From NCBI RefSeq assembly GCF_058153355.1, contig NZ_JBLWLY010000002.1: 64,000 nucleotides of DNA; one strand, given 5' to 3'. The notes beneath the pieces are model-generated. The model saw only the letters and a program-made list of their open reading frames with translations, was not told the origin of the DNA and did no database searches. Source of the stretch: a plasmid. Made by a program: the position numbers and the translations under genes. Each line of letters begins with the position of its first letter. The first letter of the stretch is position 1. Positions 47,626 through 48,177 of the stretch are shown in pieces.

Positions 47626-47893
47626 TCTCGTGTGTGCCACAGGCGCAATACATAAATAGTCTGGCCATTAAGTTCGTAACGGATTTCGTACTCGCCAGCA
47701 AAAATCCGTCTGACCTCCCTGGGTTCAAACTGAAACAACTGTTCATCCCATACGTGGATGAGTTAACAGAATGACCGGTGCCTGTGTCAGGGATTGCACC
47801 GTTCTGGCTGGCCGCAGGTTTACTGGCCAGCACCAGAAAATCATATAACCGCGCCAAATCAGAAAGCGCCTTACTGGTCCACTTCAGTTCCAT
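47626..47893 (-). pseudogene. RelE/ParE-family toxin gene split over three frames
   Basis: Manual translation: MELKWTSKALSDLARLYDFLVLASKPAA / RTVQSLTQAPVILLTHPRMG / DEQLFQFEPREVRRIFAGEYEIRYELNGQTIYVLRLWHTRENR in successive frames. Confidence 0.5.
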
Positions 47894-48177
47894 CAGCGTG
47901 GCACCGGTAACGGATTGTCAGTACTGAGGCTGTCCGCCCAGGCCTGTACAGCCTGATGGTCGATAACCTGTCCGGATGTCACATCGTCCAGGGCTTCCAG
48001 CGTCAGGCGATTATGCTCCTCCTCCTGGGCAAGCCATGCAGAAAGCGCCTGTTTGATAACCCAGCCCCGGGAGCGTTCCAGCCTGGCGGCCATCTGGTCG
48101 ACTTTATCAGCCATAGGTAATGGCACATGCGCGGTAATTACTTTTGTTGCTTGTGCACTATTGTTTTTCATTTGCAT
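47893..48177 (-). CDS. antitoxin-like DNA-binding protein paired with the degraded toxin
   Basis: 94-aa intact ORF; 1-nt overlap with toxin start. Confidence 0.55.
   Translation of the reverse strand: MQMKNNSAQATKVITAHVPLPMADKVDQMAARLERSRGWVIKQALSAWLAQEEEHNRLTLEALDDVTSGQVIDHQAVQAWADSLSTDNPLPVPR

Follow-up and report, generated by a model that had tools for sequence, protein, structure and literature searches.

The 64,000-nt stretch of plasmid DNA analysed here (the window) was found to carry ParDE-I, a type II toxin-antitoxin operon, in a copy whose antitoxin gene is whole and whose toxin gene is interrupted by two single-base insertions. The locus is very probably a recently inactivated copy of ParDE-I, an ordinary pseudogene of a known system. 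ParDE-I has already been characterised; the window holds no new toxin-antitoxin system, and the decay is of an ordinary kind.

Identity and layout of the module

The operon lies at 47616..48340 of the window on the minus strand, with the antitoxin gene first and the ParE-family toxin gene second (Table 1); the stop codon of parD-I and the ATG of parE-I share one base (TGATG). A sequence-only reading of this DNA had described an intact 94-aa antitoxin ORF overlapping a toxin gene spread over three consecutive frames. The antitoxin ORF was indeed whole, with a one-base overlap, and its product matched the Pfam ribbon-helix-helix profile RHH_1 at 41.4 bits. For the toxin, the minus strand was translated by machine and also searched by tblastn, the query being the intact IncI1 protein; both placed the gene in three frames (joint tblastn E 2e-41), with no single intact frame. 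Residues 1-30 were placed at 47893..47804, residues 29-49 at 47808..47746, and residues 50-91 plus the stop codon at 47744..47616. Careful pairwise alignment to intact homologues, the check which that reading had proposed, gave exactly two extra bases, in line with its count of two frameshifts. Apart from these insertions the gene was the same, base for base, as the toxin gene of pHUSEC41-1. Two of the earlier figures were revised: the repaired gene encodes 91 aa and not about 96, and the toxin stop codon falls at 47616-47618, so that the feature begins 10 nt before the 47626 first given. The ORF that now opens at the toxin ATG had no match in Pfam or NCBIfam.

Table 1. Positions of features in the window (64,000 nt), with the evidence for each.
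Feature	Position	Strand	Description and basis
parE-type 3' relic, RILAGEYEIRYKLTGQTIF...	5201..5257	-	upstream of ospG; translation and tblastn
yacB tail (IncF-type toxin gene)	5292..5330	-	last 13 codons; rest of yacAB replaced by IS sequence
IS3-family transposase fragment	46829..47445	-	5'-truncated; left boundary of the island; same protein as full copy at 5559..6377
Start of gene that follows the module in IncI plasmids	47446..47510	-	about 22 codons, cut at IS junction
Present ORF from toxin ATG	47594..47893	-	99 aa: 28 N-terminal ParE residues, then 71 out of frame
parE-I toxin pseudogene	47616..47893	-	278 nt (276 nt plus 2 inserted bases); tblastn, DNA alignments
parE-I codons 50-91 and stop TAG	47744..47616	-	third frame
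Quasi-palindrome 2	47739..47769	-	CTGT-taac-TCATCC ... GGATGA-ACAG; ssDNA fold and inverted-repeat test
Frameshift 2	47745	-	inserted T separating codons 49 and 50; located by aligning intact alleles
parE-I codons 29-49	47808..47746	-	second frame
Quasi-palindrome 1	47802..47838	-	TTCTG-gt-GCTGGCC ... GGCCAGC-CAGAA; ssDNA fold and inverted-repeat test
Frameshift 1	47809	-	inserted A separating codons 28 and 29; located by aligning intact alleles
parE-I codons 1-28	47893..47810	-	first frame
parD-I antitoxin gene	47893..48177	-	intact, 94 aa, ribbon-helix-helix; ORF list and Pfam RHH_1
Upstream control region of operon	48178..48340	-	contains the promoter-like site
Promoter-like site	-35 CTGAAA 48223..48218; -10 TATGAT 48199..48194	-	match to consensus alone (scan)
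IS21	48341..50469	-	right boundary of the island; istB 48399..49199, istA 49196..50368

The repaired 91-aa toxin matched Pfam PF05016 (ParE_toxin) at 62.1 bits against a cut-off of 23, over profile positions 1-88 of 89, and was 100% identical to WP_000421257.1 of pHUSEC41-1. NCBIfam offered no name for it. The nearest solved relatives are the ParE/ParD-type complexes 6xrw and 7etr, at weak similarity (E 0.004-0.008). The full-length match to PF05016 bears out the superfamily in the earlier designation "RelE/ParE-like"; within it, the RelE mRNase half was dropped. The toxin is predicted to belong to the ParE branch, in keeping with its ribbon-helix-helix partner and with two statements of PMC6614396: ParE-I does not have the RelE catalytic residues R61, R81 and Y87, and it induces SOS and filamentation in a gyrase-poison-like manner.

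The 895-nt stretch 47446..48340 showed 98-99% DNA identity to a ribbon-helix-helix plus RelE/ParE gene pair located beside repA in IncI1 plasmids (98.5-99.3% over 671-895 nt, depending on the match), with the antitoxin-to-toxin order and the TGATG overlap kept. ParDE-I stabilises plasmids of the IncI/IncF type (Kamruzzaman & Iredell 2019; PMC6614396), and the published stabilisation concerns the intact IncI1 allele. Assignment of the present module to ParDE-I follows, indirectly, from the IncI1 location and from a shared carrier: CP009105.1 is listed in Table S1 of PMC6614396 and holds the intact allele of the window toxin segment. There is a small discrepancy in that the toxin gene is given as 282 bp in that paper and is 276 bp here. 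The layout is that of the pHUSEC41-1 pair (WP_001178089.1 / WP_000421257.1), and the antitoxin differs from its IncI1 counterparts by one or two residues that are also seen in intact modules. The toxin of the IncI1 modules is intact, whereas that of the window cannot encode ParE-I; and the IncI1 modules adjoin the IncI replicon, whereas the window module is an island of 895 nt between IS elements.

The insertions, each of the +1 type, throw translation out of frame past codon 28 and a second time past codon 49, leaving the toxin gene dead and costing it the beta-sheet and C-terminus, which ParE-I needs for toxicity. Since C-terminally truncated ParE-I is non-toxic (PMC6614396), toxicity would be lost here too, as judged from homology and that published truncation, and with a dead toxin the module would no longer be able to kill plasmid-free segregants. 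Production of ParD-I probably continues, and the protein probably goes on repressing its own promoter. The view that the module has been degraded on the toxin side stood up to translation, tblastn, Pfam and alignment: a broken ParE-type gene lies beside a whole antitoxin.

The antitoxin, and toxin loss in related plasmids

Compared with the closest intact allele (Salmonella pCFSAN000968_2), the antitoxin gene differed by one base (R55H), and the 85 nt upstream of its ATG were identical. Set against the closest intact alleles, the two insertions were the only lineage-specific changes in the operon, 561 nt of which were without a private substitution. The inactivation of the toxin looks recent because neither antitoxin nor promoter has a change unique to this lineage. 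For the same reason the intactness of the antitoxin says nothing about selection either way, and recency by itself can account for it. The suggestion of the sequence-only reading that a free antitoxin or repressor is left is plausible, given an unbroken ORF and an 85-nt upstream stretch that matches the intact allele.

Codon 55 of parD-I (window 48013..48015) was found as R, H or C (CGT, CAT, TGT) in near-identical alleles and in several backgrounds. H55 was present in 6 of 1447 PLSDB records, and all four of those examined have intact toxins (IncI-gamma/K1 plasmids, two allele backgrounds). C55 is the usual allele of EIEC invasion plasmids (pINV), with the toxin mostly intact. In CP091385.1, a pINV-type plasmid with a dead toxin, the antitoxin departs from the nearest intact allele at one residue alone, R55C, in the same codon as the R55H of the window. 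A convergent change at codon 55 tied to toxin death was considered and rejected, because H55 and C55 both occur with intact toxins. The polymorphism suggests either a mutable site or recombination and has no link to whether the toxin is intact.

ParDE-I is a regular component of the pINV backbone. In S. flexneri pCP301 both ORFs (CP0217/CP0218) are intact and the module stands at 177.5 kb; it was not in the 75-105 kb region, where it had been sought on a guess from the locus name orf0111-0112. Among EIEC pINV-size contigs whose antitoxin is of the R55C type, the 91-aa toxin is intact in most, and the pINV-like plasmid of FDAARGOS_941 has an intact pair. Three further EIEC pINV loci (L006-L008) were discarded as carriers, having matched the IS sequence alone. 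The copies in pCP301 and in EIEC pCFSAN029787_01 represent the same module on the same kind of plasmid, with IS21-family sequence upstream in each. They differ from the window copy in having intact 91-aa toxins and in belonging to a 96.5%-identical allele lineage, whereas the frameshifted window allele is closer to the IncI1 alleles (98.5-99.3%) than to the pINV lineage (about 96.5%).

Loss on the toxin side was seen in two other pINV-type plasmids, each with an intact antitoxin. In CP091385.1 the toxin is dead through a complex frameshift at codon 39, and indels are also present outside the toxin. In CP119451.1 an IS1 is inserted after about codon 71 of the toxin. Counting the window, three distinct routes to toxin-side loss of ParDE-I are represented among pINV-type plasmids. 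No account of this parE-I pseudogene in pINV turned up in literature searches.

Two observations were made on ParDE-I genes in other plasmids. In IncF plasmids from S. sonnei, K. pneumoniae and E. coli there is a 5'-truncated parE-I relic spanning codons 13-91; in the three records read it has no antitoxin gene and no annotation, and it shares the window's T insertion at codon 49/50. PLSDB match counts suggest that this relic is widespread. In NZ_AP028830.1, an E. fergusonii plasmid, the module match fell in two pieces with 70% covered and the toxin alone was annotated; the antitoxin may be partly deleted beside it, which would be unexpected for a live toxin.

An orphan ParD-I might be kept by selection, either for anti-addiction (immunity against the ParE-I of incoming IncI/IncF plasmids) or as a regulator of other plasmid functions, the toxin having been lost as dispensable or harmful. 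The fully intact antitoxin ORF and upstream region would agree with this, as would the abundance of ParDE-I-type modules on IncI/IncF plasmids in E. coli and Shigella (2847 PLSDB records, 260 of them Shigella) and the retention of the antitoxin by three pINV-type plasmids that dropped the toxin by different routes. The related antitoxin PrpA (7etr) regulates plasmid replication, which would lend the regulatory version some support. Nevertheless, no change sets the window antitoxin apart from alleles in intact modules, the convergence at codon 55 (R55H, R55C) dissolved once both variants had been seen with intact toxins, and in a large gene-position index one other contig alone has this allele. 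There are two to four indels in all, and their location in the toxin is statistically indistinguishable from chance. Targeted inactivation, considered on the strength of that location, was set aside: the chance that both insertions hit the toxin is about 0.11, which is not significant, and the indels of CP091385.1 lie outside the toxin as well. Maintenance of the orphan by selection is considered unlikely.

Reality and origin of the two insertions

Each insertion completes an imperfect inverted repeat. At site 1 the ancestral sequence is TTCTGgtGCTGGCC...GGCC-GCCAGAA; the added A pairs with a bulged T and gives a perfect 7-bp stem (GCTGGCC/GGCCAGC). At site 2 the ancestor is TCATCC...GGA-GA, and the added T pairs with a bulged A to give a perfect 6-bp stem (TCATCC/GGATGA). 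When folded as single-stranded DNA, the hairpins went from -7.4 to -10.2 kcal/mol at site 1 and from -4.6 to -5.9 kcal/mol at site 2. Among the 832 distinct single-base insertions possible in the gene, ranked by energy gain, insertion 1 fell in the top 0.8-1.8% and insertion 2 in the top 2-11.5%. Perfect stems of at least 7 bp and at least 6 bp, with the inserted base internal, arise from 0.7% and 2.6%, respectively, of the 832. The joint chance of both stem completions is about 2 in 10,000, a figure computed after the pattern had been noticed; the palindrome statistics are all post hoc in this sense.

Quasi-palindrome (template-switch) frameshift hotspots are established in E. coli and phage T4. 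Both window sites resemble them in that an imperfect repeat is made perfect by a base from the opposite arm; those hotspots were mutations in reporter genes, whereas the alleles in the window are natural plasmid alleles. Template-switch mutagenesis during replication is the most likely origin of both insertions as judged from the sequence, because each adds the exact base specified by the opposite repeat arm. Neither homopolymer slippage nor sequencing error fits the insertions. A quasi-palindrome origin was also considered for the frameshift of CP091385.1 and was rejected, there being no hairpin gain and no donor sequence nearby.

Insertion 2 recurs in the IncF toxin relic lineage, which is about 8% divergent (three records). 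The sharing may reflect either a mutational hotspot or a short gene conversion from the IncF relic; the 57 nt flanking the insertion hold no diagnostic differences between the window and the relic. Two indels without a private substitution in 561 nt are unusual for plain neutral drift, and selection to inactivate the toxin, or gene conversion from the IncF relic that carries insertion 2, could have contributed.

A further reading makes the inverted repeats of parE-I frameshift hotspots that recurrently kill the toxin, after which the orphan ParD-I disarms post-segregational killing by incoming ParDE-I resistance plasmids (IncI/IncF). It is given little chance of being correct; if it were true, the persistence of IncI/IncF resistance plasmids in Shigella and EIEC would be altered.

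The frameshifts are real. An error in sequencing or assembly, with the toxin gene truly intact, would account for the finding that neither insertion in the IncI1-type allele occurs in PLSDB plasmids or in complete RefSeq E. coli genomes, where the best matches differ from the window by exactly two gaps. In the large gene-position index, an exact-protein look-up of the antitoxin located one further contig with the frameshifted allele. This contig (DAXYJU010000194.1 of GCA_043012465.1, an independent NCBI draft) is identical to the window at 894 of 895 island positions, contains both insertions, shares the IS21 junction and ends at the IS3-family fragment. Error was rejected on the strength of this second assembly, which shares both the allele and the junction with IS21; in addition, neither insertion site lies within a homopolymer, and insertion 2 was found independently in the three IncF relic records. 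Error is thus very unlikely. Least credible of all is the supposition that two programmed +1 ribosomal frameshifts or other recoding still make the toxin and keep the module functional, which could appeal to the otherwise undamaged state of all three coding segments, but which needs two separate recoding events where intact homologues need none, the undamaged segments being expected if inactivation was recent.

The relic beside ospG and the surroundings of the island

The window comes from a pINV-type invasion plasmid. Its genes include one for an IpaH effector that scores above the NCBIfam cut-off, others for an OspG/NleH-like kinase and for an AraC-type regulator, and partition genes; F-type transfer remnants and many IS elements are also present. 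The island that holds the module is bounded by the IS3-family fragment and by IS21. Homology to plasmid backbones stops at 47446, where the gene downstream of the module is cut; in the comparison locus that gene is complete and encodes a 93-aa hypothetical protein. Other decay in the window comprises traI in two ORFs, a traD fragment, and yacAB reduced to 13 codons.

The sequence-only reading had also pointed to a similar toxin C-terminus near 5190..5250, upstream of ospG. The match was recovered at 5201..5257 on the minus strand as 19 residues with 79% identity to residues 62-80 of the toxin (within-window E 3e-6). This RILAGEYEIRYKL stretch is genuine, an older relic of parE type next to the 13 final codons of yacB, which lie just upstream of it on the minus strand (5292..5330). 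In S. flexneri, yacAB is directly upstream of ospG and is an inactive toxin-antitoxin locus (PMC9455713); the published yacAB reverse primer matches the window at 5093-5124. The relic in the window is what remains of that locus, which is a different toxin-antitoxin pair from ParDE-I. In pCP301, yacA and yacB codons 1 to about 57 are kept and fused to the last 26 nt of the parE relic; the window has kept the yacB tail and the parE relic and lost the remainder to IS sequence. The comparison shows two different deletions of one ancestral order, yacA-yacB-parE relic-ospG. At pCP301 28303..28765, upstream of ospG, yacB has a frameshift close to codon 20 and breaks off after about codon 57-69, and yacA looks intact; yacAB of pCP301 is another pINV module decayed on the toxin side. 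The inactive loci reported for S. flexneri pINV (yacAB and orf0111-0112; PMC9455713) are likewise decayed or non-functional addiction modules on an IS-rich invasion plasmid.

The same IS66-family fragment is found beside both toxin-antitoxin relics (5335..5547 and 46752..46817), as is the same IS3-family transposase sequence (5559..6377 and 46829..47203). Rearrangements that join the ospG region and the parDE-I region could be mediated by such repeats.

Several other features of the window were recorded. The F-type traI at 51887..56475 (plus strand) is read in two overlapping ORFs of 645 aa and 884 aa, which implies a frameshift. A traD-like C-terminal fragment stands alone before it at 50416..51192, and ORFs resembling traX and finO come after it (56917..58437); as with the toxin gene, the transfer region has the look of decay. 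An apparently complete chaperone-usher fimbrial operon, judged from translations alone, occupies 37699..44929 (plus strand), with an 842-aa usher-like ORF (39001..41529), a chaperone-like ORF (41581..42357) and pilin-like ORFs with a terminal ...Y-E/F motif; no counterpart was seen in the stretches of pCP301 that were read. A 580-aa ORF at 61323..63065 (plus strand) belongs to the group II intron reverse transcriptase/maturase family (371 bits against a cut-off of 300).

The simplest account of the locus is that an addiction module has decayed recently, under weak selection or none, on an IS-ridden plasmid with other decayed loci. It should be annotated as a parE-I pseudogene with an intact parD-I, and not as a functional maintenance system of the invasion plasmid; beyond correct annotation it matters little. 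It does offer a natural example of two frameshifts, each of which completes a quasi-palindrome and one of which is recurrent in another lineage. The repeated toxin-side loss of ParDE-I in pINV fits the published inactive toxin-antitoxin loci of these plasmids. It may also be relevant to plasmid stability and to how resistance plasmids bearing ParDE-I interact with them.
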